This document shows, one piece after another, positions 1 to 12,544 of a DNA stretch of 12,544 bases (the first letter of the stretch is position 1; each line of letters begins with the position of its first letter). The notes beneath the pieces are model-generated. The model searched no databases and was not told the DNA's origin. It saw only the letters and a list, made by a program, of their open reading frames with translations. The position numbers and the translations under genes are program-made. Location of the stretch: the NCBI GenBank assembly GCA_042216675.1, contig JBDGTS010000040.1:1-12544 (forward strand), in the 5' to 3' direction. This DNA comes from Halobacteriaceae archaeon. GTDB lineage: Archaea; Halobacteriota; Halobacteria; Halobacteriales; Halobacteriaceae.

Positions 1-1263
1 GTGAAGTCCTTCGAGGGCACGCGCTCGAACAACTGGACGAAGGGCAACCCCTGTCTGTCGGGGGACATCCTCGGCGCCTGGCGCGAGGAGGCCATCTGGC
101 GGGCCGCGGACCGCAGCCACCTCCGGCTCTACGCGACGCCACACGAGACCGACCACCGGCTGTACACCCTGTTGCACGACCCACAGTACCGGACCGGAAT
201 CGCGCGACAGAACGTCGGCTACAATCAGCCGCCGTGGCCGAGTTTCTTCTTGGGGCACGGGATGGCGGCCCCGCCGAACCCCGACATCAAGACGTCCTTC
301 GAGCCGGCCGGCCACGACCGACTCGCCGAAATCTCGGCGAGCGAGACCGATGCGACCCTCTGTGACACCATCGACTTCGAGGCTGTGGACCAGACGAAGG
401 GCAACACGATTCGGTCGCTGTCGTGGGAGTTGGGCGACGGCACGACTGTGAGTGGCCGGTCGGTCAGTCACTCCTACGACGAACTGGGGGTGTACTCGGT
501 CGAGCTGACCGCGACGGTCGCCAACGGGGAGACGACGGACTTCGAGACGATAACGGTCGCGGAGTTGGACCCCATCGCGCGGGCCGTGGCGAGTGCGACC
601 CGCGTCGACATGGGCGAGTCCATCGACTTCGAGGCGGAGGACATCTCCGGCGAGGAGTATTCGATTGCCTCCCTCACGTGGGACTTCGACGACGGCACGA
701 CGGCGACTGGGTGGTCGGCGACCCACACCTACGACGAACCCGGCGAGTACGCCGTCACCCTGAACGCCACCGCCGAAACCGGTTGCACGTCGTCCTACAC
801 CGTGCCGGTCACGGTGGAGGTCGCGGCGGGCACCTACCGGCTGACCGCGAGACACACCGCCGACGACAAGGTGGTCGAAGTGGCAGACGGCTCGACGGCC
901 GACGGCGCGAACGTCCAGCAGGGCGTCTGGGAGGGCGCCGACTACCAGCGCTGGACGGTGACGGAACTCGAAGACGGCGTCTACCGAATCGAGAACGTCA
1001 ACAGCGGGCTGGTGATGGAAGCGGAAGACGGCGCCTCGCGGGGCGGGAACGTCGTCCAAGCCGCGTGGGAAGGGAAGGACTACCAGAAGTGGAAACTCGT
1101 GCCCGTCTCCAGCGGGCACTGTAGTCTCCGGCCCCTGCACGCCGCCCCCGACCTCGCGGCGGACGTCTTCGGCGTGAGCACCGAAGACGGGGCCACTATC
1201 GGCATCTGGAGCACGAGCAACAACGACAATCAGCAGTTCGCGTTCCTCGATCCGTCGGCCTGA
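1..1263 (+). CDS. 5'-truncated PL11 rhamnogalacturonan lyase (YesW/YesX family) C-terminus + 2 PKD domains + ricin-B/CBM13-like lectin domain
   Basis: aa 1-97 match the PL11 C-terminal signature (SNNxTKGNP, GDILGxWREE, RLYTLLHDPQYR, QNVGYNQPP..SFFLG). PKD cores WELGDGT and WDFDDGT are each followed by HxYxxxGxYxVxL. The ricin trefoil has QRW/QKW/QQF repeats (aa ~274-417). The GTG at position 1 is internal, so the true start lies upstream of the window. Confidence 0.88.
   Translation: MKSFEGTRSNNWTKGNPCLSGDILGAWREEAIWRAADRSHLRLYATPHETDHRLYTLLHDPQYRTGIARQNVGYNQPPWPSFFLGHGMAAPPNPDIKTSFEPAGHDRLAEISASETDATLCDTIDFEAVDQTKGNTIRSLSWELGDGTTVSGRSVSHSYDELGVYSVELTATVANGETTDFETITVAELDPIARAVASATRVDMGESIDFEAEDISGEEYSIASLTWDFDDGTTATGWSATHTYDEPGEYAVTLNATAETGCTSSYTVPVTVEVAAGTYRLTARHTADDKVVEVADGSTADGANVQQGVWEGADYQRWTVTELEDGVYRIENVNSGLVMEAEDGASRGGNVVQAAWEGKDYQKWKLVPVSSGHCSLRPLHAAPDLAADVFGVSTEDGATIGIWSTSNNDNQQFAFLDPSA
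322..819 (+). repeat. Two tandem PKD domain repeats (approx. 322-564 and 571-819) within the PL11 gene
   Basis: The translated units align: IDFEA/IDFEA, SLSWELGDGTT/SLTWDFDDGTT, SHSYDELGVYSVELT/THTYDEPGEYAVTLN. DNA identity is visible, e.g. ccatcgacttcgaggc occurs in both. Confidence 0.85.
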
Positions 1264-1317: not shown

Positions 1318-1620
1318 CTAAATCATCCGGTACACTTCGTCCATCCAGACGTCCTCCTCGTCTTCGAGGATGGGGGCCATCACCTCGTCCCAGTCGGCTT
1401 GCGCCTCGCTCTCGGCCTGCACTTCCTTGATGACCTCGGGGTTCTCGACTTCCATGTAGCCGAAGACGTGGCCATCCTTCTCGAAGACGCTGTACGTTTC
1501 GAGGCCCGCGCCGGAGTCGAGATAGGCGCGTTCGAGGGCCTCGGGCACGTCCTCGTGTTCCTCGCGGTACTCCTCGCGTTTCCCCTCCGTAATCTGGAGG
1601 TGGAAGGCGATTCGCTCCAT
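1318..1620 (-). CDS. rhaM: L-rhamnose mutarotase (100 aa)
   Basis: MERIAFHLQITEGKREEYREEH..V, YSVFE..GHVFGYME, QADWDEVMAP and MDEVY match the RhaM/YiiL pattern (EYxxxH, YS[IV]F, W..xM). The ATG at 1620 was chosen over the ORF-track start at 1686 because homology starts there and a TTTT box lies at -28 to -31. Confidence 0.85.
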   Translation of the reverse strand: MERIAFHLQITEGKREEYREEHEDVPEALERAYLDSGAGLETYSVFEKDGHVFGYMEVENPEVIKEVQAESEAQADWDEVMAPILEDEEDVWMDEVYRMI

Positions 1621-1725: not shown

Positions 1726-2931
1726 ATGCAGATTACAGACGTCAGCACGACAAAAATCAGCAACGAGTCGTGGGGCGAGTTCATCGAGTTCCCCCTCGTC
1801 ACCATCATGAACAAGTGGGAGGAGTATCGCAACGTCGACGGCGAGAACCCGCAGGCCCGCCGCAAGTGGATGGGGCCGGTGGGCGACGTCGTCGTCGAAG
1901 TCGAGACTGACGCCGGCATCACGGGCGTCGGCGTCGGCAACTGGGGCTCCGGCGCCATCGCAACCGTCGTCGAGGAGACGCTCTCGAAGATCGTCGAGGG
2001 CGAGGACCCGCACAAGCGCGAACAGCTGTGGGAGCAGATGTACCGCGCGACGCTCCCCTTCGGCCGGAAGGGCGTCGCCGTGATGGCAATCAGCGCCGTC
2101 GACCAGGCACTCTGGGACATCGCGGGCAAGGACGCGGGCAAGCCCGTCTACGAACTGCTGGGCGGCCCCACAAAGGACGAGATTCCCGCCTACGCCTCGA
2201 ACCTCCATCCCGTCGACATGGAGAAACTGGAGCGCGAGGCCATTCAGTACGTCGAGGAGGGCTTCGACGCGATGAAGCTCCGCTTCCTCCACGGCCCCGA
2301 GGCGGGCCGCTCGGGGAGGAAGAAGAACGAAGAAATCGTCAAGACGGTTCGCGACGCCGTCGGCGACGACATCGAAATCGCGGCCGACGCCTACATGGGC
2401 TGGTCCGTGAAGTACGCGAAGAAGATGGTCAAGCGCCTCGAACCGTACGACATGGCGTGGGTCGAGGAGCCGGTCATCGCCGACGACATCTCCGGCTACG
2501 CCGAGGTCCGCGAGGCCGCGCCGATGCCCATCTCCGGCGGCGAACACGAGTTCACCCGCTGGGGCCACGAGGACCTCCTCGAGGAGGGCGCCGTCGACAT
2601 CCTCCAGCCGGACGTGGGCCGCGTCGGCGGCATCACGGAGATGCAGAAGGTCGCCGACATGGCGGAAGTCCACGACGTGCCGGTCATCCCCCACGCCGGC
2701 ACGAACCCGACGCTCCACGCCATCGCGGGGCACACCAATATGCCGATGGCCGAGTACTTCCCGACCCCGGAGTGGTTCGAGGAGCGACAGGAGGAACAGG
2801 AGTCGACCTACGCCGACGCCATCTTCGAGAACCCGCCGTCACCCGAAGACGGGTCCATCCCGCTCCCCGACGAACCCGGTGTCAGCACGCAACTGAACCA
2901 CGACGCCCTCGAACACTTCGCGGTCGAGTAA
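1726..2931 (+). CDS. rhmD: Mandelate racemase/enolase-superfamily acid-sugar dehydratase, probably L-rhamnonate dehydratase (401 aa)
   Basis: VVVEVETDAGITGVG, YRATLPFGRKG..AISAVDQALWDIAGK, metal ligands DAYM / EEP / GEHE, and QPD plus PHAG (His-Asp dyad). The GRKG and GEHE motifs plus divergence from rhaM favour rhamnonate as substrate. The real start is MQITDV at 1726; the extension to 1399 is antisense to rhaM. Confidence 0.78.
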   Translation: MQITDVSTTKISNESWGEFIEFPLVTIMNKWEEYRNVDGENPQARRKWMGPVGDVVVEVETDAGITGVGVGNWGSGAIATVVEETLSKIVEGEDPHKREQLWEQMYRATLPFGRKGVAVMAISAVDQALWDIAGKDAGKPVYELLGGPTKDEIPAYASNLHPVDMEKLEREAIQYVEEGFDAMKLRFLHGPEAGRSGRKKNEEIVKTVRDAVGDDIEIAADAYMGWSVKYAKKMVKRLEPYDMAWVEEPVIADDISGYAEVREAAPMPISGGEHEFTRWGHEDLLEEGAVDILQPDVGRVGGITEMQKVADMAEVHDVPVIPHAGTNPTLHAIAGHTNMPMAEYFPTPEWFEERQEEQESTYADAIFENPPSPEDGSIPLPDEPGVSTQLNHDALEHFAVE

Positions 2932-2932
2932 C

Positions 2933-3976
2933 ATGAGCCAGAGCCACGACCTCAGCTTCGAGTACAACGTTCCCGTCTTCGCTGGCGCGCCGGACGAGGG
3001 CGAGGACGAACCGGTGCACCGCGACACGCCCAACTACGAGGCCCTCGACTGGGAGACGACGAAGGAGGGCATCCTCAAAGCCGAGGAACTCGGCTTCGAC
3101 GCCGCGTGGGCGCCCGACCACCTGATGCTCGGCCGCGACAACGCCGAGTACGAGGTGTGGACGCTCCTCTCGGCGATGGCCGGCTTCACCGACGACATCA
3201 ACATCGGGTCGCTGGTGATGTGCAACGACTACCGGAACCCCGCGCTCCTCGGGAAGATGGCGGCCACCCTCGACGTCATCTCGGAGGGCCGCCTCGAACT
3301 CGGCATGGGTGCCGGCTGGCACGAACCCGAGTACGACGCCTACGGCTGGGAGTACCGCGACGGCTTCGAGCGTCTGATGCGCCTCGACGAGTCCATCCGC
3401 CTCATGAAGCGGATGTGGGCCACGGACCCCGGCGAGAGCGCCTCCTTCGACGGCGACCGCTACCAGATCGAGGACGCCACCTGCACGCCCGGCCCGGTGC
3501 AGGACCCCCATCCCCCGATTCTCGTCGGCGGACAGGGCGAGGAAGTGACGCTCAAACTCGTCGCCAAGCACGCCGACTGCTGGAACACCGACGTGTTCAA
3601 CGGCGACGTGGAGACGCTGGAACACAAGATCAGCGTCATCGAGGACCACTGTGAGACGGTCGGCCGCGACCCCGACGAAATCGAGTACTCGTGGGACGGC
3701 CACGTCATCTGCACGCGCGACGAGGAGAAGTTCGACCGCCTGCTCGACCTGATGACGCCGATTCAGTTCGAGGAGGAGTATCAGGACCAGGCCCCCATCG
3801 AGACCGAGGAGGACGCCCGCGAGTACTTCATCATGGGCACCCCCGAAGAGTGCGCGGAGGCCATCCAGCGCCGCATCGACGCCGGCGTGACGAAGTTCCA
3901 GTTCTGGTTCGTCGACTTCCCGAGCCACGAGGGCATGGAACTGTTCGCGGACGAGGTCATCCCACAGTTCCGCTGA
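2933..3976 (+). CDS. LLM-class (luciferase-like) oxidoreductase, probably F420-dependent (347 aa)
   Basis: AEELGFDAAWAPDH, YRNPALLGKMAATLDVISEGRLELGMGAGW..EY, PPILVGGQGE..TLKLVAKHADCWN and C-terminal LFADEVIP. It starts 1 nt after the dehydratase stop (TAA-c-ATG). Confidence 0.85.
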   Translation: MSQSHDLSFEYNVPVFAGAPDEGEDEPVHRDTPNYEALDWETTKEGILKAEELGFDAAWAPDHLMLGRDNAEYEVWTLLSAMAGFTDDINIGSLVMCNDYRNPALLGKMAATLDVISEGRLELGMGAGWHEPEYDAYGWEYRDGFERLMRLDESIRLMKRMWATDPGESASFDGDRYQIEDATCTPGPVQDPHPPILVGGQGEEVTLKLVAKHADCWNTDVFNGDVETLEHKISVIEDHCETVGRDPDEIEYSWDGHVICTRDEEKFDRLLDLMTPIQFEEEYQDQAPIETEEDAREYFIMGTPEECAEAIQRRIDAGVTKFQFWFVDFPSHEGMELFADEVIPQFR

Positions 3977-3980
3977 CCTG

Positions 3981-3994
3981 AACGCAACCGTTTT
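3981..3994 (+). promoter_or_regulatory. Putative BRE/TATA element AACGCAACCGTTTT for the BNR_4 gene (T-tract may also terminate the upstream operon)
   Basis: TTTT at 3991-3994 is -28 to -25 from ATG 4019. A 13/14 identical copy precedes the GH28 gene. Confidence 0.55.
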
Positions 3995-4018
3995 CTCCCG
4001 GCCCGACTCGCTGTCTGT

Positions 4019-5269
4019 ATGCGACCGGCAACGACGACGCAGGTGACAGACGCCGTCGACGTCGGCGACGCGTGGGCGGGCCACGCCGTTGGGTTCGACG
4101 TGGCGACTCGCGACGGCCAGCAGTTCGTCGCGTACTACGACGCCGACAGGCGTCTCGTCGTGGCGCACCGCGCCCTCGGCGACGACGACTGGCAACGGAC
4201 CGAACTCCCCGAACGCGTGCCGTGGGACAGCCACAACGACCTCGCTCTCGCCGTCGACGCCGCCGGTCACCTCCACCTCAGTGGCAACATGCACGTCGAT
4301 CCGCTGACCTACTTCCACACGACCGACCCCCTCGACCCGACGACGTTCGAACGCGTCGAATCGCTCGTGGGGCGCGACGAGGACAGAGTGACCTACCCCC
4401 GTTTCCTCGACGGTCCCGACGGCCTCGTGTTCATGTATCGGGACGGCTCCAGCGGCGACGGGCGGCGCCTGCTGAACGCCTACGACCCCGACGACGGGTG
4501 GCGCCGCCTCCTCGACGTGCCCCTCCTCGACGGGCGGGACGGCGCCAACGCCTATCCCGCGGGACCGATCCGCGGTCCGGACGGCGACTTCCACCTGTTC
4601 TGGGTGTGGCGCGACACGCCCGACGCCGCGACGAATCACGACCTCTCCTACGCCCGGAGTGCGGACCTCCGCTCGTGGACCCGGGCGGACGGGCGCCCCC
4701 TCGACCTCCCGATTACGCCCGCCAACGACTGTCTCGTGGATCCGGTTCCCAGCGGCGGCGGCCTCCTCAACAGCAACGTCGCGCCCGGATTCGACGGCGA
4801 GGGGCGGCCGACGGTCACCTACCACAAACACGTCGGCGATTCGACGGAGGCGTTCGTGGCGCGACTGGAGGGCGACCGGTGGCGCGTCCGGCAGGTGAGC
4901 GACTGGGGCGAGCGCTGGGACTTCGGGGGCGGCGGCTCCTTGGAGGACCGCATCGTCGTGGACTCGGTGTGGCCGACGCCCGACGGCCTCGTCGGGACGT
5001 TCTGGCACGCCGCCCACGGTCCCGGGCGGTGGCTGCTCGACGCAGAGACGCTGGCGCCCGTTCGGACGGACGCGCCGTGGCACGGCCTGCCCGTGGAGTG
5101 GCGAACGCCCACAGAGGACCGCTTCGACGTGCAGTGGACCGTCGACGGCGAGTGGGCGCTCCGGTGGGAGGCGCTCCCCCCGAACCGGGACCGGCCCCGC
5201 GACGAGGTGCCGCCGCCGTCACGGCTCCGGGTCTGTCGGCTCGACCCTGCGCCGAGGCGACAGACGTAA
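4019..5269 (+). CDS. BNR_4-type beta-propeller protein, related to rhamnose-uronate lyases (PL24/PL42-like); no signal peptide (416 aa)
   Basis: QFVAYYD, WDSHN.LALAVD..GHLHLSGNMH, TYPRF, FMYRDGSSGDG, HLFWVWRDTPDAATNHDLSYARS.D..SW (Asp-box like). The family call rests on these motifs; the activity is inferred. Confidence 0.72.
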   Translation: MRPATTTQVTDAVDVGDAWAGHAVGFDVATRDGQQFVAYYDADRRLVVAHRALGDDDWQRTELPERVPWDSHNDLALAVDAAGHLHLSGNMHVDPLTYFHTTDPLDPTTFERVESLVGRDEDRVTYPRFLDGPDGLVFMYRDGSSGDGRRLLNAYDPDDGWRRLLDVPLLDGRDGANAYPAGPIRGPDGDFHLFWVWRDTPDAATNHDLSYARSADLRSWTRADGRPLDLPITPANDCLVDPVPSGGGLLNSNVAPGFDGEGRPTVTYHKHVGDSTEAFVARLEGDRWRVRQVSDWGERWDFGGGGSLEDRIVVDSVWPTPDGLVGTFWHAAHGPGRWLLDAETLAPVRTDAPWHGLPVEWRTPTEDRFDVQWTVDGEWALRWEALPPNRDRPRDEVPPPSRLRVCRLDPAPRRQT

Positions 5270-5294: not shown

Positions 5295-7106
5295 GTGACA
5301 GAGCGGACAGACGGCGCCGTCCCCGACGTCGAGGCGTTCCGCGACGCGGTCGAATCGGTCGGTCGGCCCGTGGTGACTGCCGGCGACGTGGCGCGAGCGC
5401 TGGACTGCGACCACGACGCCGCGGAGGCGGCCCTCGCGGGCCTCGCCGACGGGCCGGACGTGGAGCGAATGGACGTGTCTCACGACCCCGTCGTCTACTA
5501 CACGACGGCGTGGGGCACCAGCGCCACCCGAGAGCGCGTCGTCGCCTTCCCCGACCGGCGGACCATCGTCGCGGACTATCCGACGCAGTTCACGCGCGCC
5601 CGCCTCTCGCAGTTCGCGCGCCTCGCCGACCGGAACGGCGAGGGCGGCTACGTCTACGAAATCGAGCGCGAAGACGTGTGGGCCGCGCCCTACGACGACG
5701 TGGACGCCCTCCTGACGACGGTGCGCGACGTGCTGGGTCGTCGCGCGGAGAGTCTCGAATCGTGGATCGAAGACCAGTGGCAACGCGCCCGCCTCTTTCG
5801 GCTGTTCACCCACGAGGACGGCTACACCGTGTTGGCGGCCGAGACGGACGAACTGATGGGCAACGTCGCCCGCGAGAAACTGGACGACGACCTGCTCCAC
5901 GGCCCCATCGACGACGACCGGAGTTGGGTCGTCGACGGCGCGGAGGCGGCCATCAAGCGGACGCTCTACGACGCGGGCTACCCGGTCAGCGACGAACGCG
6001 ACCTAGACGACGGCGACGAACTCGCCGTCACCCTCCGCCTGCAGTTGCGCGACTACCAGCAGGAGTGGGTCGAGCGCTTCCTCGACAGGGGGTCGGGGAC
6101 GCTCGTCGGCCCCGCGGGGTCGGGCAAGACGGTGGCGACGATGGGCATCATGGACGCCATCGGCGGCGAGACGCTGGTCCTCGTGCCGAGTCGGGACCTC
6201 GCCGACCAGTGGCGCGACGAACTCCTCCGGCACACGGACCTCGGACCCGAGGACGTCGGCGTCTACCACGGCGGCGCGAAGGAACTTCGGCCGGTCACCG
6301 TCGCCACCTACCAGATTGCGGGCATGGACCGCCACCGCTCGCTGTTCGACGCGCGGCGCTGGGGGCTCATCGTCTACGACGAGGCCCACCGCGTGCCGAG
6401 TCCGGTCCACCGCCTGAGCGCCGACTTACAGGGGATGCACCGCCTCGGCCTCACGTCGAGTCCGGTGCGCGAGGACGACAAGGAGGCCGACATCTACACC
6501 CTCGTCGGCCCCCCCATCGGGACGGACTGGGAGACGCTGTTCGAGGAGGGGTACGTCTCGCGCCCGTCCGTCGAGATTCGCTACGTGGGCTGGGCGGACG
6601 AGGACGCGAAGGACGAACACGGGCGCGCGACGGCCCACAGCGCCCGGCAGATCGCGGCGACGAACCCAGCCAAAGTCGGGGCCGTCGAGGACGTCCTCGC
6701 CGAGCATCCCGACGCGAAGTCCCTCGTCTTCGTCGAGTATCTCGACCAAGGCGAGGAACTGGCCGCGGCCCTCGACGCGCCGTTCATCAGCGGCGAGATG
6801 CCACACGCCCGACGCGCGTCGCTCTACGAGGCGTTCCGTGAGGGGCGCGAGCGAACGCTCGTCGTCTCCCGCGTCGGCGACGAGGGCATCGACTTGCCCG
6901 ACGCCGAACTCGCGGTGATGGCCTCGGGGCTGGGCGGGTCACGGCGACAGGGCACTCAACGCGCCGGGCGGACGATGCGCCCCGAGGGCGACGCCCGCGT
7001 CGTCGTGGTGGCGACGCGCGGCACCGTGGAGGAGGACTTCGCCCGCAAGCGGATGCGCCACCTCGCGGGCAAGGGCGTCGAAGTGAGAGAACGCGTCCTC
7101 GATTAG
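5295..7106 (+). CDS. rad25: Rad25/XPB-type SF2 DNA helicase with N-terminal HTH-like extension (603 aa)
   Basis: Q-motif LRDYQ, Walker A GPAGSGKT, DEAH box, LGLTSSP (motif III), REDDKE (RED motif of XPB), RVGDEGIDLP and motif VI QRAGRTMR. GTG start. Confidence 0.88.
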   Translation: MTERTDGAVPDVEAFRDAVESVGRPVVTAGDVARALDCDHDAAEAALAGLADGPDVERMDVSHDPVVYYTTAWGTSATRERVVAFPDRRTIVADYPTQFTRARLSQFARLADRNGEGGYVYEIEREDVWAAPYDDVDALLTTVRDVLGRRAESLESWIEDQWQRARLFRLFTHEDGYTVLAAETDELMGNVAREKLDDDLLHGPIDDDRSWVVDGAEAAIKRTLYDAGYPVSDERDLDDGDELAVTLRLQLRDYQQEWVERFLDRGSGTLVGPAGSGKTVATMGIMDAIGGETLVLVPSRDLADQWRDELLRHTDLGPEDVGVYHGGAKELRPVTVATYQIAGMDRHRSLFDARRWGLIVYDEAHRVPSPVHRLSADLQGMHRLGLTSSPVREDDKEADIYTLVGPPIGTDWETLFEEGYVSRPSVEIRYVGWADEDAKDEHGRATAHSARQIAATNPAKVGAVEDVLAEHPDAKSLVFVEYLDQGEELAAALDAPFISGEMPHARRASLYEAFREGRERTLVVSRVGDEGIDLPDAELAVMASGLGGSRRQGTQRAGRTMRPEGDARVVVVATRGTVEEDFARKRMRHLAGKGVEVRERVLD

Positions 7107-8704
7107 GTCCGATTCCCGCTCTCGGCGAAGTCCGCCTCCCCGCGCACGGCGATGCTCGCCGCCGCGGCGTCGTTCAGCGCGAAGATGCGCTCTTCTTCCG
7201 TGTCCGAGACGTCGAGGAACGCCGTCGCGTCGCCGTCGAGACGGCTGTCGCGGACGGTGATTCCTTTCGTGTCGCACAGTTCGAGGAACGCGCCGCCGTG
7301 GGCCGGCGCGCCGACGACGCCGTCGATGGTCACGTCCGTGACGTCCTCGCAGGCGACGGCGCTCGTGCAGAACTCGGGGACGTCGTCGTCCCATTCGACG
7401 TTCAGGTCGGCGACGGTGAGGTCCGAGACGCCGCGTGCGAACACTGCGGGCACGTCGTGTTCGAGGATGGGTGGCATCGCGGACGTGGGCTGAAGGTCGA
7501 GGTTGCCGCCCACCTCCTCTGCCGCGTCGGGGTCGCGCATCGTGAGGTCCACGCCGTCGAGGACGACGCCCTCGACGTCGGCGTCGTCGTGAGCGTAGAT
7601 GACCGCGCCGTTCTCGGCGTCCGCGACGACGTTGCGGAAGCGGACGTTCCGCACGGCCCCGAGGTCGGTGTCCTCGTGGCGCGGGACGGAGGTGACGTAA
7701 ATCGGCTCGGCCTTCCCCCACCACGGGCCGCGGGGGAGGGTCGTTTCGATGGTGATGTCCTGAAACAGGATGTTCTCCAAGTCGCCGCCGTCGCGGTGCT
7801 GGATGCCGAGGCCGCGGTTCGACCCGTAGATGGTGATGTTGCTGAAGGTGCAGTTCCGGATGTCGCCGGCCGTTCCGGACCCGAACTTGATGGCACAGGC
7901 GTGGGAGGCCAGCGTGCAGTTCGTCACCGTCAGGTTCTCGACGGGGCTCCCCTCGTGGGACCCCGGCACGATGGTGTCGTCGCACGCGACGACGGTGCAG
8001 TCCGCGATGTGGACGTTGCGCGAACTCACGACGGCGATGCCGTCGCAGTTCGGAATCAGCATGTTGTTCAGGACGTCGACGCCCAACACGTCCACCTCGT
8101 CGCAGTCGTCGAAGTGGAGCGTCCACGACGGCATGTCCTCGAAGGTCAAATCGCGGACGAGGACGTTCTCGCAGTCCTCGAAGTGGAACATCGACCCCGG
8201 CCGGAACTCGGGTTTCGCGACGGGCCAGTCGCTCGTGTCGCCCGACCGGTCGAGGTAGTCGTCTCCCTGTCTGGCCTCGGGTTTCCCCTCGCTGACGAGG
8301 GGCCACGCCGACTCCTGCCCGGAGTGCCCCTCGATGGGGTCGTCCATCCGCATCAGGTCGGTACCGTGGCCGAAGAAGGTTCCACGACCCGTCAGCGCGA
8401 CGTTCTCGACGCCTTGAGCGACGAGGAACGGGAGTTCGCCGTCCGGCCCGGGTTCCGTGCTCCCGGCGGCGTAGTAGTCGTCTTCGTCCTGACTCGCCCG
8501 GACGGTAGCGCCCGCGGCGAGGTGGAGTGTGGTGTCGTCGCCCAGCACGATTGTTCCGACGACGTAGTCGCCGGCGGGGACGACGACGGTGCCGCCGCCC
8601 GCCGCCGCGCAGGCGTCGAGTGCGTCCTGAAAGGCGTCCGTCGCCGTCTCTCCGTCTCCCTCGGCGCCGTAGTCGGTCACCGACAGCCGCGAGTGGTCAG
8701 TCAT
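7103..8704 (-). CDS. Glycoside hydrolase family 28 (polygalacturonase/rhamnogalacturonan hydrolase-like beta-helix), no signal peptide (533 aa)
   Basis: SVTDYGAEGDG..T.AFQ.ALDAC...GGGTVVVPAGDY, ENVALTGRGT, PSWTLH, IPNCDGI, CDD, AIKFGS and many beta-helix N-V/I-x-F repeats. The ATG at 8704 has TTTT at -26 to -29. Its stop overlaps the helicase stop (4-bp convergent overlap 7103-7106). Confidence 0.85.
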   Translation of the reverse strand: MTDHSRLSVTDYGAEGDGETATDAFQDALDACAAAGGGTVVVPAGDYVVGTIVLGDDTTLHLAAGATVRASQDEDDYYAAGSTEPGPDGELPFLVAQGVENVALTGRGTFFGHGTDLMRMDDPIEGHSGQESAWPLVSEGKPEARQGDDYLDRSGDTSDWPVAKPEFRPGSMFHFEDCENVLVRDLTFEDMPSWTLHFDDCDEVDVLGVDVLNNMLIPNCDGIAVVSSRNVHIADCTVVACDDTIVPGSHEGSPVENLTVTNCTLASHACAIKFGSGTAGDIRNCTFSNITIYGSNRGLGIQHRDGGDLENILFQDITIETTLPRGPWWGKAEPIYVTSVPRHEDTDLGAVRNVRFRNVVADAENGAVIYAHDDADVEGVVLDGVDLTMRDPDAAEEVGGNLDLQPTSAMPPILEHDVPAVFARGVSDLTVADLNVEWDDDVPEFCTSAVACEDVTDVTIDGVVGAPAHGGAFLELCDTKGITVRDSRLDGDATAFLDVSDTEEERIFALNDAAAASIAVRGEADFAESGNRT

Positions 8705-8729
8705 GCGTCGAACGTGGGCGAAGCGGACC

Positions 8730-8743
8730 AAAACGGTTGGGTT
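8730..8743 (-). promoter_or_regulatory. Putative BRE/TATA element AACCCAACCGTTTT for the GH28 gene
   Basis: Reverse complement of aaaacggttgggtt. The T-run is 26-29 nt upstream of ATG 8704 and the element is near-identical to 3981-3994. Confidence 0.55.
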
Positions 8744-9091: not shown

Positions 9092-10261
9092 CTACCACGC
9101 CGAATCGAGGACTGCGCGGGCGTCGGCCGGGTCGAGGCGATAGCCCGCCGGCGCGTTCGCCAGCAAGCGGTCGCTCGCGACGGCGGCGGCCACGTCGTCG
9201 AGCATCGACTCGTCGAGGCCGTCGAGGGCGCGCAGTCGACCCGGAAGTTCGAGGGCGTCCCGCACGTCCGCGACGGCGGCCACGACGCCGTCAGCAGGGT
9301 CCTCGCCATCAGGGACGCCGAGAGCGTCCGCAAGTTCGTCCCGACGCGCGTCCACGTGCCCGAACAGGTGCGCCAGCGCCTCGGGCGCGACGGCGGCGTG
9401 CGCACGGCCCTGATGGACCCCCGCGACGCCGCGCAGGCCGTGGCCGAACGCGTGAATCACCGAGAGCGTCGACGCGTCGGGCCGCGCGACGCCGTACTGC
9501 ACGAGGACGGTGCCCTCGATGACCGATTCGAGGTCCCACTCCGTCGGGTCCGGGCGCGCGAGCGTCGGCAGGGAGTCGCGGAGGCGTTCGAGACCCCGAG
9601 TCGCCGTCGCGTCCGTCACGGGCGTCGCCGCGGCGGCGTAGATGGTCTCGACGCCCTTGTCGAAGCCGTTCATCGCCGACGCGCGGAGGACGCCGCTCGG
9701 CGTCGTCGCGAACAGTTCGGGGTCGTAACAGGCGGCCGTCGGCATCAGGCGCGGGTCGGAGACGCTCCCCGCGGCGCCGTCGACGGTGAACCCCGCCGCC
9801 GTCGAGAGGTCGGCGCCCGCGAGCGTCGTCGGCACGGCGAACACGGGCGGGAGCGACCCGTCGGGGACGGTGAGCGACCCCGTGCGCTCGGCTTCGGCGC
9901 GGAGAGCGGCGTATGACCGGTCGCTCGCCGCGACGACGCTCGCGACGCCGGCCACGTCGAGGCTACTGCCGCCGCCGAGGGCGACGAGGGCGTCCGCGTC
10001 CGCCTCGCGCATCGCCCGGGCCGCGTCGCGCGACGTGTCGAGCGTCTTCGCGGGCGTCGTCGCCGCGAACACGTCTGCGAGGTGGTCGCCGAGGCCGCCG
10101 CGAACCGGGTCCATCACCGCTGGCTGTTCCCCGACGGTGCGACCCGTGACGACCAGCGCTCGCTCCGCGCCGTGTCGCGCCAGTTCCGCGCCGAGGTCCG
10201 CGACGACGCCCTCGCCGGCGCGAATCACGCCGGGGTCGTACTCGAATCTGAACGGCTCCAT
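9092..10261 (-). CDS. Iron-containing alcohol dehydrogenase superfamily protein, maleylacetate reductase-like (389 aa)
   Basis: ERALVVTG, VALGGGSSLD (NAD binding), VPTTLAGAD, P..ACYDPEL..TP and IHAFGH. The start MEPFRFEYDPG at 10261 fits the family N-terminus. Confidence 0.82.
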   Translation of the reverse strand: MEPFRFEYDPGVIRAGEGVVADLGAELARHGAERALVVTGRTVGEQPAVMDPVRGGLGDHLADVFAATTPAKTLDTSRDAARAMREADADALVALGGGSSLDVAGVASVVAASDRSYAALRAEAERTGSLTVPDGSLPPVFAVPTTLAGADLSTAAGFTVDGAAGSVSDPRLMPTAACYDPELFATTPSGVLRASAMNGFDKGVETIYAAAATPVTDATATRGLERLRDSLPTLARPDPTEWDLESVIEGTVLVQYGVARPDASTLSVIHAFGHGLRGVAGVHQGRAHAAVAPEALAHLFGHVDARRDELADALGVPDGEDPADGVVAAVADVRDALELPGRLRALDGLDESMLDDVAAAVASDRLLANAPAGYRLDPADARAVLDSAW

Positions 10262-10352
10262 GGCCCCCCTTCGTCCGCCCCCGACGTGAAGACGGCGGCC
10301 CGGAGTGCCCCGAGGCCAAACCACATACCGCGGGCGGTCGTACCGGGGTCTG

Positions 10353-10997
10353 ATGAGCCATCACCACGCGGACCAGCAGACGCTCCACGCCGGGGCCGAC
10401 CCCGAGGACGCGGCGGCGGGCGCCGTCCTCGTCCACGGGCGCGGCGCCAGCGCTCGGAGCATCCTCGGTCTCACGAACGAATTCGACGCCGAGGGCGTGG
10501 CGTATCTCGCCCCGCAGGCCGCCAATCGGACGTGGTATCCGAACTCGTTCACGTCGTCCATCGAGTCGAACGAACCGCAACTGTCGTCGGCGCTCCGCCG
10601 GGTCGGCGAGACGATCGACACGCTCACCGAGGCCGGAATTCCCCGCGAACGCATCCTCCTCGTCGGCTTCTCGCAGGGCGCCTGCCTCGCCAGCGAGTAC
10701 GTCGCCCGGAACGCGGAGCGCTACGGCGGCCTCGCGGCCCTCAGCGGCGGTCTCATCGGCCCCGAGGGGACGCCCCGGAACTACGACGGCGACCTCGACG
10801 ACACGCCCGCGTTCGTCGGCTGTAGCGACAGCGACCCCCACATTCCCCTCGAACGGGTCCACGAGACGACGGAGGTCCTCGAAGAACTCGGCGCAGACGT
10901 GACCGAACGCATCTACCCGGACATGCCCCACACCGTCAACGAGGACGAACAGGAGTTCGTCGCCGAGATGGTGGCCGGCGTCGCGGACGTGCCGTAG
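10353..10997 (+). CDS. Alpha/beta hydrolase, phospholipase/carboxylesterase (MhqD/dienelactone hydrolase-like) family (214 aa)
   Basis: VLVHGRGA, YLAPQA..TWYP, nucleophile elbow GFSQG, SDSDPHIP (Asp) and MPHTVN (His) give a complete catalytic triad. ATG at 10353. Confidence 0.85.
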   Translation: MSHHHADQQTLHAGADPEDAAAGAVLVHGRGASARSILGLTNEFDAEGVAYLAPQAANRTWYPNSFTSSIESNEPQLSSALRRVGETIDTLTEAGIPRERILLVGFSQGACLASEYVARNAERYGGLAALSGGLIGPEGTPRNYDGDLDDTPAFVGCSDSDPHIPLERVHETTEVLEELGADVTERIYPDMPHTVNEDEQEFVAEMVAGVADVP

Positions 10998-11009
10998 GGA
11001 ACACGTTCG
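10998..11009. promoter_or_regulatory. NarO-type inverted repeat (GGAA-CACG-TTCG) upstream of nitric oxide reductase
   Basis: One mismatch to CGAA-N4-TTCG with core GAAC-AC-GTTC. It lies in the 75-nt intergenic region before a denitrification gene. Confidence 0.62.
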
Positions 11010-11072
11010 GCGACGGCCACACCCACATTTGGCCGGTAATTTCAACCGAACCATGGGTGAAACCATCGCCCG

Positions 11073-12544
11073 ATGAAGGTCACTCGCAAGGGCCTCGCGA
11101 CGGCGCTGGCGATCGTCTTCGTCGTGAACCTCGTCGTCATGAGCGCGGGCGCGCTCTACTCTTACCAGAACGCGCCCCCGATACCCGACGAAATCGTCGG
11201 CCCCGACGGCGAGACGGTGGCGACGGACGGCGACGTGCGCGCCGGCAAGGCCGTCTTCCAGTCGAACGGGCTGATGAACCACGGCTCGATTCTCGGCAAC
11301 GGCGCGTACTTCGGCGTCGACTACACCGCTGACGCCCTCGCGCTGAAGGCGGCGTTCATGCAGGAGTACTACGCACAGGCCGAGTACGGCCAGCCGTTCA
11401 CCGCGCTCTCGCCGGGACAGCGCGCCGCCGTCAATCAGTCTGTAACGGCCGACCTCGACGCGGCGTACGACGGCGGGCCAATCGAGTATTCGGCCGCGGA
11501 ACTGTACGCTCACCGGCAGGTCAGAGAGACGTACGTCGCGCGCTACCACGAGGGCGCCCCCGAACGCGGGGTTCCCGAGGGGATGATAGAGAGCGCCGCC
11601 GACGCCCGCCGCTTCGCTGACTTCGCGCTCTGGACGGCGTGGATGGCCCACACCGAGCGCCCGGGCACCGACCACAGTTACACGAACGACTGGCCGTACA
11701 ACCCCCTCGCCGGCAACACGCCCACCGGCGGGACGATGGTGTGGAGCGCCATCGCCATGATTCTGCTCATCGCCGCCGCGGGCGGTGCGGTGTGGGTGTA
11801 CCAGTCCGCCGAACTCGAGGAGCCGGAAATCGCCGGCACGACGATACCCGACCCCGGCGACGTGTCCCTGCTTCCGAGTCAGCGGGCCGCCTCCCGGTTC
11901 ATCCCCGTCGGAGCCTTCCTCTTCGTCGGACAGGTGCTCTTGGGGGCCCTGCTGGCGCACTACTACGTCGAACGCCACGCTTTCTTCGGCCTCGGCGAAC
12001 TCCTCGGCGTCGACGTCCTCCAGTGGCTCCCCTTCGCCGTGGCGAAGACGTACCATCTCGACTTGGGCATCCTCTGGATCGCGACGCTGTGGCTCGGGGC
12101 GGGCCTGTTCCTCCCGGGCCTGTTGACGGGTCACGAACCGCCGGGACAGGCCCGCCTCGTCACGGTGCTGTTAGGCGCTCTCGTCGTCGTGTTGGTGGGT
12201 GGCTTCGTCGGCGTCTGGCTCGGGTTCAAGGGAGTCATCGGCGTCGAGAACCCGCTTTGGTGGATCGTCGGCAACGAGGGCTTGGAGTACGTCGAAGTGG
12301 GCCGTCTCTGGCAGTTCGGATTGCTGGCCGGCTTCGCGTTCTGGGCGTGGCTCGCCTATCGGGGCTTCCGACCGCTTCTGGACCGCGAGTCGCGCTTCGG
12401 CCTCGCGCACATGATTCTGTACGCCGGGGTCTCTATCGGTCTCCTGTTCGTCGCCGGCATGCTGTACACGCCGCAGACGAACATCGTGATGACGGAGTTC
12501 TGGCGCTGGTGGGTCGTCCACATGTGGGTCGAGGGCGCCTTCGA
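11073..12544 (+). CDS. norZ: Quinol-dependent nitric oxide reductase (qNOR), 3'-truncated by window end
   Basis: Manual translation from ATG 11073 is open to the end: MKVTRKGLATALAIVF...APPIPD...GKAVFQ..GLMNHGSILGNGAYFGVDYTADAL...SYTNDWPYNPLAGN...LLAHYYVE...KTYHLDLGILWIAT...GNEGLEYVEVGRLWQ...EFWRWWVVHMWVEGAF. A GGGTGA Shine-Dalgarno-like site lies at 11055-11060. The gene is absent from the ORF track because there is no stop in the window. Confidence 0.95.
   Translation, partial: MKVTRKGLATALAIVFVVNLVVMSAGALYSYQNAPPIPDEIVGPDGETVATDGDVRAGKAVFQSNGLMNHGSILGNGAYFGVDYTADALALKAAFMQEYYAQAEYGQPFTALSPGQRAAVNQSVTADLDAAYDGGPIEYSAAELYAHRQVRETYVARYHEGAPERGVPEGMIESAADARRFADFALWTAWMAHTERPGTDHSYTNDWPYNPLAGNTPTGGTMVWSAIAMILLIAAAGGAVWVYQSAELEEPEIAGTTIPDPGDVSLLPSQRAASRFIPVGAFLFVGQVLLGALLAHYYVERHAFFGLGELLGVDVLQWLPFAVAKTYHLDLGILWIATLWLGAGLFLPGLLTGHEPPGQARLVTVLLGALVVVLVGGFVGVWLGFKGVIGVENPLWWIVGNEGLEYVEVGRLWQFGLLAGFAFWAWLAYRGFRPLLDRESRFGLAHMILYAGVSIGLLFVAGMLYTPQTNIVMTEFWRWWVVHMWVEGAF

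Follow-up and report, generated by a model that had tools for sequence, protein, structure and literature searches.

Why should an oxidoreductase of the luciferase-like monooxygenase (LLM) fold be encoded directly behind L-rhamnonate dehydratase in a haloarchaeal genome, and what might it do there? The question is raised by a stretch of 12,544 nucleotides from a Halobacteriaceae archaeon (GenBank assembly GCA_042216675.1, contig JBDGTS010000040.1), hereafter the window, in which the gene for an LLM-fold protein follows the dehydratase gene rhcD after a single base. A preliminary description, made from the sequence of the window, had proposed that this LLM might perform an F420-dependent step in deoxy-sugar catabolism. 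On balance, our analysis indicates that it is probably an F420-linked oxidoreductase resembling the TIGR03560 family, a fixed, co-transcribed partner of RhcD, and functionally tied to the rhamnose route. The part of the window that bears on the question contains the following features:

1318 to 1620, minus strand: rhaM, L-rhamnose mutarotase of 100 aa with its ATG at 1620 (PF05336, 56.9 bits)
1621 to 1725, between the strands: divergent intergenic spacer of 105 bp that separates rhaM from rhcD and presumably contains the promoters of the two genes (from reading the sequence)
1726 to 2931, plus strand: rhcD, L-rhamnonate dehydratase of the enolase superfamily, 401 aa (PF13378 and PF02746)
2929 to 2935, plus strand: stop/start junction TAAcATG with a 1-nt gap (from reading the sequence)
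2933 to 3976, plus strand: LLM-fold oxidoreductase, TIGR03560-like and predicted to be F420-dependent, 347 aa (PF00296, 180.7 bits)

The one-base junction and the placement opposite rhaM were both confirmed: TAA occupies positions 2929 to 2931, c position 2932, and ATG positions 2933 to 2935, the dehydratase and LLM open reading frames (ORFs) are both on the plus strand, and rhaM is on the other. The start of rhaM was placed by alignment with the 100-aa Haloferax volcanii RhaM, to which the window protein is 73% identical over 100 aa. Over 401 aa, the window dehydratase shares 92.5% identity with the H. volcanii protein that carries the annotation RhcD, L-rhamnonate dehydratase, and it is by orthology to that protein that the upstream gene is assigned this function; the best NCBIfam model is the L-rhamnonate dehydratase model NF011968, an equivalog of the E. 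coli type, with 260 bits, below its cut-off of 393. The H. volcanii rhc cluster, encoding a diketo-hydrolase route for L-rhamnose, was reportedly defined by Reinhardt, Johnsen, and Schonheit in 2019. On plasmid pHV3, the gene order is rhaM, rhcC (lactonase), four ABC transporter genes, rhcE (dehydrogenase of 2-keto-3-deoxy-L-rhamnonate, KDR), rhcD, the LLM gene, an IclR regulator gene, rhcF (hydrolase), and rhcB, so that rhcD and the LLM gene stand in the same order as in the window, with a 2-nt gap and rhaM nearby. The H. volcanii LLM, 87% identical to that of the window, has no gene name, and its RefSeq product is "TIGR03560 family F420-dependent LLM class oxidoreductase". Unlike in H. volcanii, the other rhc genes of the source genome are found on other contigs, and the window pair is accompanied by polysaccharide-degrading genes for pectin and rhamnogalacturonan enzymes.

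To what extent the pair recurs was assessed in 401 haloarchaeal genomes forming an even sample of the class, with an orthologue threshold of E ≤ 1e-100. An LLM orthologue was detected in 46 genomes and a dehydratase orthologue in the identical 46, on the same contig and adjacent in every case; none of these carriers holds only one of the two genes. In a pattern scan covering one genome for each species, 38 loci were obtained, 36 of which hold an LLM at least 77% identical to that of the window. The dehydratase gene is directly upstream in 35 of the 36, the exception (L033) being a second LLM copy of 78% identity in one Halocatena genome that has no dehydratase beside it. Gaps between the rhcD stop and the LLM start were surveyed at 37 loci (the 35 fetched, locus L040 of genome G028, and the window; three values were read by eye), and they measure 1 to 3 nt in 31, with a 4-nt overlap in two, 6 nt in two, 10 nt in one, and 46 nt in one; 33 of the 37 loci therefore have a gap of 3 nt or less or an overlap. 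Gene order around the pair, derived from tblastn searches with reference proteins, varies: rhcE lies upstream in some loci, is divergent in others, and elsewhere is missing from the 8-kb flank; the clusters use two ABC transporters that are unrelated to each other; and GH78 rhamnosidases and LUD-domain (LutB/LutC-like) lactate-utilization genes are variably present. The recurrent linkage of rhaM, dehydratase, and LLM that had been suggested from the window is real, and its strikingly conserved portion is the adjacency of dehydratase and LLM. Mean column identity is 87% for the LLM and 84% for RhcD. Within the haloarchaeal rhc gene set, the LLM is a fixed and probably translationally coupled partner of RhcD. 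LUD-domain genes directly adjoin many rhc clusters (L008, L011, L012, L014 to L017, L019, L020, L022, L028, and others), an arrangement that fits L-lactate as an end product of the route.

The rhcD sequences split into two deep types about 25% apart, with mean distances of 0.087 and 0.168 inside types A and B, respectively, and 0.251 from one type to the other; type A is very uniform between genera. The LLM tree interleaves these types, and LLM distances are nearly independent of rhcD type (0.129, 0.176, and 0.161). This interleaving indicates that the dehydratase allele was exchanged beside a resident LLM, or the reverse, without the pair separating, and it suggests repeated replacement of the dehydratase allele through recombination inside the cluster.

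Three raw-read RNA runs from a single study (X21, X22, and X23) were mapped onto L040 (contig C4 of G028), where gene coordinates coincide with those of pHV3, over a stretch that takes in the terminal part of the ABC ATPase gene and then rhcE, rhcD, the LLM gene, the regulator gene, rhcF, and rhcB. Sense depth in X21 was 52 to 322 in the rhcD bins and 72 to 166 in the LLM bins, falling to 29 in the next bin; the corresponding values were 890 to 1575, 824 to 1195, and 131 in X22, and 173 to 412, 186 to 322, and 52 in X23. No dip in depth was seen at the rhcD/LLM junction in any of the three runs, and in all three, RNA fragment ends accumulate approximately 54 nt past the LLM stop (26, 167, and 34 molecules). 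The even depth and the accumulation of fragment ends together indicate that rhcD and the LLM gene share one RNA that ends just behind the LLM gene: in one model organism, the two genes are co-transcribed. Prediction of a complex between RhcD and the LLM gave scores of 0.00 and 0.00, which is no answer either way.

For the placement of the LLM within its superfamily, PF00296 (Bac_luciferase) covers residues 32 to 320 with 180.7 bits against a gathering cut-off of 27.9, and the AlphaFold model is a TIM barrel (pLDDT 95.1, pTM 0.92). Foldseek matched the model to many LLM structures at E values of 1e-20 to 1e-24, but flavin mononucleotide (FMN)-type and F420-type structures all fall in this range, and fold comparison was rejected as a test of the cofactor. 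In profile classification, the NCBIfam ranking is TIGR03560 (222 bits), TIGR03856 (175), TIGR03619 (155), and TIGR03621 (140), all families predicted to use F420, whereas the best FMN family, SfnG, reaches 104 bits against a cut-off of 383 and SsuD 65 against 518. The nearest subfamilies are thus those predicted to use F420, in line with the preliminary description. Three orthologues score 227.0, 230.5, and 235.1 bits with TIGR03560, so that the orthologue group straddles the cut-off of 231.4, and the protein is better called TIGR03560-like than a TIGR03560 member, a borderline placement. Its "DH" and "GAGW..E..YG" segments fit the consensus of this family, of which we know of no characterized member. 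The haloarchaeal orthologues stand isolated, at least 77% identical among themselves and at most 48% identical to other proteins: among 50%-identity representatives, all of them fall in one cluster, and the next relative scores 279 bits compared with 646; the ten representatives closest to the LLM bear no protein name. The ESM Atlas, used for leads only, returned generic LLM clusters from Chloroflexota, Thermomicrobiota, and archaea.

The motif that had been likened to that of F420 sugar-phosphate dehydrogenases is indeed present as P61-D62-H63, with D62 and H63 invariant in a 105-sequence family alignment; D62, H63, and R101 are family-invariant and retained in the LLM orthologues. D62-H63 aligns with the "SDH" of fHMAD and the "TDH" of Mer, whereas the nearest FMN-type structures, 3rao and 8vw6, have "AEL" or "PEL". 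The catalytic set of FGD-, FSD-, Adf-, and fHMAD-type enzymes consists of His, Trp, and Glu. With the positions taken from the alignment with fHMAD, the Trp and Glu positions of FGD, Adf, and fHMAD correspond to Gly67 and Trp129 of the LLM and the His alone is kept, as H63, so that the likeness extends to one third of that active site. Judged from these residues, the active site is not of the FGD type, and the FGD-family models TIGR03557 (81 bits, cut-off 210) and TIGR03554 (66 bits, cut-off 420) are far from matched. By sequence, the closest characterized F420 enzyme is fHMAD (Rv0132c). With fHMAD, Adf, FGD, and FSD, the LLM shares the fold and a histidine aligned with their catalytic His. 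The hydride that these enzymes transfer comes from secondary alcohols or sugar hemiacetals, a chemistry that rhamnose intermediates make available; the enzymes differ from the LLM in the two replaced positions, at an identity of approximately 27%.

Whether the host supplies F420 was examined in the source genome, where cofD (395 bits), cofE (286), and cofG (440) were all detected above cut-off. A cofH-like match (G000:C5:33378-34469) comes in two pieces of 270 and 54 bits within one 459-aa frame and does not reach the cut-off of 374; this frame may be a divergent cofH or one bearing an insertion. The presence of cofD, cofE, cofG, and the cofH-like gene bears out the earlier statement that haloarchaea make F420. 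In the carriers, cofE is above cut-off in 46 of 46, a result that does not contradict F420 use. Among 45 nonhaloarchaeal relatives retrieved with a paralogue of the LLM, 43 belong to the Actinomycetota or Chloroflexota, one to Binatia, and one is unclassified; Actinomycetota and Chloroflexota make F420. Taken on its own, F420 as the cofactor of the LLM is a claim in which we place good confidence.

The rhamnose route of the carriers was then compared with that of H. volcanii. Orthologues of RhcC are present in 46 of the 46 carriers, of RhcE in 45, and of RhcF in 44, which runs counter to the idea that the LLM replaces the NAD(P)-dependent KDR dehydrogenase; a role as a substitute for RhcE or RhcF was ruled out, both being present in nearly all carriers. 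The LLM would be an addition to the five known enzymes and is no replacement for these three. The RhcB-type rhamnose dehydrogenase, a short-chain dehydrogenase/reductase (SDR), is patchy: orthologues of at least 67% identity occur in 19 of the 46 carriers, and eight carriers lack both RhcB and the adjacent Gfo/Idh/MocA orthologue. The carriers hold many SDR paralogues at 35 to 48% identity, and in many otherwise complete rhc clusters RhcE is the sole dehydrogenase within 8 kb. The source genome encodes proteins like RhcC (66% identity), RhcE (69%), and RhcF (69%) on contigs C3, C4, and C2, respectively, in addition to the RhcD of the window (92.5%). No RhcB orthologue was found in this 80%-complete genome, the best match being a generic SDR (38% identity by tblastn; 42% at E 3e-39), nor was the rhc binding protein found in it. 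A possible lack of the usual SDR dehydrogenases, which had been put forward as a check, thus has a divided outcome: an RhcE-like enzyme is present, and an RhcB-type enzyme was unseen in the 80% of the source genome available.

Related LLMs also occur outside the rhc clusters. A paralogue in the source genome, LLM2, is 43% identical to the LLM and scores 231.1 bits with TIGR03560; it is encoded at G000:C37:4839-9230 (L041) in the order GH95 fucosidase, Zn-dependent dehydrogenase, LLM2, and periplasmic-binding-like protein, with gaps of 21, 3, and 1 nt, and looks like a second deoxy-sugar-linked LLM of this genome. LLM2 orthologues are found in approximately 35 haloarchaea within varied oxidative sugar clusters, where their neighbors include RhaM-like mutarotases, lactonases, enolase- or UxuA-type dehydratases, and CUT2-type transporters, indicating that in haloarchaea this LLM group is repeatedly associated with oxidative routes for sugars. 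A Halolamina metagenome-assembled genome (L036:6784-10321) encodes an enolase-superfamily protein followed by a distant LLM (38% identity) and then a major facilitator superfamily transporter; no sugar dehydrogenase, lactonase, or other sugar genes were detected nearby. At the loci of 46 bacterial relatives, no enolase-superfamily, lactonase, or FAH genes were found near the LLM gene, and a general tie of the group to sugar-acid genes in bacteria was ruled out for these loci.

If the LLM finds its substrate within the rhamnose route and not among unrelated compounds, as the linkage leads us to infer, the dehydratase as its only constant neighbor and the Halolamina module favor a sugar acid or a 2-keto-3-deoxy product as the substrate. 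Action at the sugar-acid stage next to RhcD is accordingly a tentative assignment, and another pathway-linked redox step is scarcely less plausible. In its most likely form, the sugar-acid reaction would use F420 to oxidize the secondary alcohol at C4 of KDR, the product of RhcD; it would run parallel to the NAD-dependent RhcE and would yield F420H2 together with the same diketo acid that RhcF cleaves. Such an oxidation would be in keeping with what the nearest characterized F420 enzymes, fHMAD and Adf, catalyze, and fHMAD is described as oxidizing a secondary alcohol (PMC8305020). As a conceptual analog for a pathway in which an NAD(P)-linked dehydrogenase is joined by a second, F420-linked one, the mycobacterial enzymes can be considered. 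In mycobacteria, Zwf (with NADP) and FGD (with F420) perform the same oxidation; to our knowledge, such a pairing has not been shown for haloarchaea or for nonphosphorylated sugar routes.

Several points weigh against an F420-linked, rhamnose-specific LLM. F420 use by the TIGR03560 group is, as far as is known, based on phylogenetic profiling rather than experiment, and the window LLM falls short of membership in TIGR03560 (F420_Rv1855c), scoring 222.0 bits where the cut-off is 231.4. Its best solved relatives in sequence, profile, and fold comparisons are 3rao (an uncharacterized Bacillus cereus LLM), SsuD, SfnG, and MsuD, and the segment after strand beta-4, "GAGWHEPE", aligns with the "SAWWEEE" of 3rao, unlike the FGD-type "GTGE". 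Within the LLM fold, F420 use is described as having arisen repeatedly inside FMN clades (PMC8518648). A parallel KDR dehydrogenase would be redundant, since five known enzymes cover the whole route and orthologues of four of them (RhcC, RhcD, RhcE, and RhcF) are in nearly all carriers. No LLM orthologue was found outside haloarchaea among the 50%-identity representatives, and other users of this pathway evidently do without it. LLM2 has no fixed neighbor, so tight pairing with a dehydratase is no general rule for the group.

Of the alternatives, the one that survives best is that the LLM is an F420-dependent L-rhamnose 1-dehydrogenase, converting the hemiacetal to the lactone in the manner of FGD, either beside RhcB or in its place. 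The first step is the sole step of the route without a conserved enzyme, as the patchy RhcB orthologues of the carriers (19 of 46), their absence from what is available of the source genome, the eight carriers without RhcB and Gfo/Idh/MocA, and the many clusters with only RhcE within 8 kb all attest, and LLM2 is found directly behind mutarotase and lactonase genes in two loci (L044 and L050). Oxidation of sugars at C1 is moreover established for the F420 LLM fold by FGD and FSD (PMC6279831). Yet the LLM keeps only the His of the FGD-type residues, Trp and Glu being replaced by Gly67 and Trp129, the FGD-family model gives the 81 bits noted above, and the constant neighbor is a dehydratase, neither a mutarotase nor a lactonase. 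The SDR paralogues of the carriers could serve the first step, and the H. volcanii annotation names RhcB as the rhamnose dehydrogenase. Knockouts of rhc genes by Reinhardt et al. in 2019 are said to have proved essential functions, which also weighs against this role, and overall we regard a rhamnose 1-dehydrogenase as unlikely.

A more distant alternative is an FMNH2-dependent two-component monooxygenase of the SsuD, SfnG, or MsuD kind, acting on a pathway-related or an unrelated substrate. The closest solved structures are 3rao, 8vw6 (SsuD), SfnG, and MsuD, the W-x-E-x-E segment behind beta-4 is common to the LLM and these proteins and aligns with the "WWEEE" of 3rao and 8vw6, and F420 and FMN users are described as interleaved in this region of the LLM tree (PMC8518648). 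The family models speak differently, with SfnG at 104 bits (cut-off 383) compared with 140 to 222 for the four predicted F420 families, and the DH motif of the LLM and F420 enzymes is missing from 3rao and 8vw6 and is not shared by the SfnG, MsuD, and SsuD group. No flavin reductase domain was detected in the ten scanned ORFs of the window or in the annotated H. volcanii cluster (the rest of the genome was not searched), and the distant relatives come almost solely from F420-making phyla. An FMN monooxygenase is hence improbable.

Least probable of all is a hitch-hiker on mobile islands unrelated to rhamnose, or a noncatalytic partner of RhcD: the patchy distribution (46 of 401 genomes, none of 22 in the family), the frequent plasmid location expected of a horizontally moving block, and a pathway chemically complete without the LLM would suit it, but a passenger should have been lost or separated in some lineages, whereas all 46 carriers keep both genes, the adjacency outlasted rhcD allele replacement and all cluster rearrangements, mean column identity (87%) is as high as that of RhcD (84%), D62, H63, and R101 are retained, and the transcript level is close to that of rhcD.

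We return to an LLM that is probably F420-linked and probably tied to the rhamnose route, and consider its surroundings. Beyond the genes already described, the window contains:

1 to 1263, plus strand: C-terminal portion of a rhamnogalacturonan lyase of family PL11 that has PKD and ricin-B domains (profile searches)
3977 to 4018, no strand assigned: spacer of 42 nt behind the LLM gene with a T-run (gttttc), a possible transcript end (by analogy with L040)
4019 to 5269, plus strand: BNR_4 protein with weak likeness to the BT3686 rhamnosidase (profile searches)
5295 to 7106, plus strand: XPB-type helicase (profile searches)
7103 to 8731, minus strand: GH28 enzyme (profile searches)
9092 to 10324, minus strand: Fe-alcohol dehydrogenase (profile searches)
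from 11073, plus strand: start portion of a NorB-like gene (profile searches)

The contig thus forms a small pectin/rhamnogalacturonan island comprising the PL11 lyase, the BNR_4 protein, and the GH28 enzyme, and the rhcD-LLM pair stands within it, away from the remaining rhc genes. The BNR_4 protein scores 181 bits with the BT3686 alpha-L-rhamnosidase model (cut-off 700). An XPB/Rad25-type DNA repair helicase (NF045503, 380 bits, cut-off 610) is an odd neighbor amid sugar genes, its final 4 nt overlapping the convergent GH28 gene. An ORF of 723 aa on the minus strand (9963 to 12134) has no family match, overlaps the NorB-like gene of the opposite strand, and is most likely a shadow ORF arising from G+C-rich sequence. 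By analogy with L040, a transcript end downstream of the window LLM, within the spacer at 3977 to 4018, is possible. The rhcD-LLM pair was detected in none of 22 other genomes of the source organism's family, whose genomes are small (2.1 to 3.4 Mb), and this lineage may have acquired the window contig recently by horizontal transfer. Many copies of the pair are plasmid-borne, and this location together with the patchy distribution indicates that the block is probably mobile.

How much of this is new can be judged from the literature. The gene family and the gene itself are already known, and the H. volcanii copy has been flagged as an open issue: HVO_B0113 is listed as a predicted F420 oxidoreductase with an open annotation issue, its identity to Rv0132c being 27% and the two judged "too distant to assume isofunctionality" (PMC8305020). 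Since rhaM is HVO_B0104 (PMC11023807), HVO_B0113 is probably the H. volcanii LLM. In the searchable literature, nothing on HVO_B0113 was found beyond PMC8305020, the SAR202 paper held nothing on an LLM in the rhamnose route, and a search combining F420, rhamnose, and luciferase-like gave nothing relevant. Strict coupling to rhcD, its survival through allele replacement, co-transcription, and recurrence among paralogues were not found in print (the 2019 rhc paper and supplements lay outside the search). Of the claim that this would be a pathway variant not yet described, the coupling with rhcD accordingly appears to be new, whereas the prediction of an F420 oxidoreductase had already been listed for H. 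volcanii.

For haloarchaea, a single F420-dependent reaction had been reported according to a 2021 account, which called the role of the cofactor enigmatic (PMC8305020). Against this background, the LLM offers a predicted F420 enzyme whose physiological setting is unusually clear: it is tied to a single enzyme of a pathway that has been fully worked out in a genetically tractable model organism. Its pairing with rhcD makes a role of F420 in haloarchaea directly testable. It also bears on the completeness of the textbook five-enzyme oxidative rhamnose route in this group. That the LLM is the first F420-dependent enzyme of archaeal sugar catabolism, oxidizing KDR or L-rhamnose so that growth on deoxy sugars supplies F420H2 to a cofactor pool otherwise enigmatic in aerobic haloarchaea, and that the two or three paralogous LLM lineages of other oxidative sugar clusters mark a general, overlooked F420 branch of these pathways, is a speculative extension. 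If the LLM does use F420 on a rhamnose intermediate, the known pathway would gain a new variant, and haloarchaeal F420 biology a rare point of entry.

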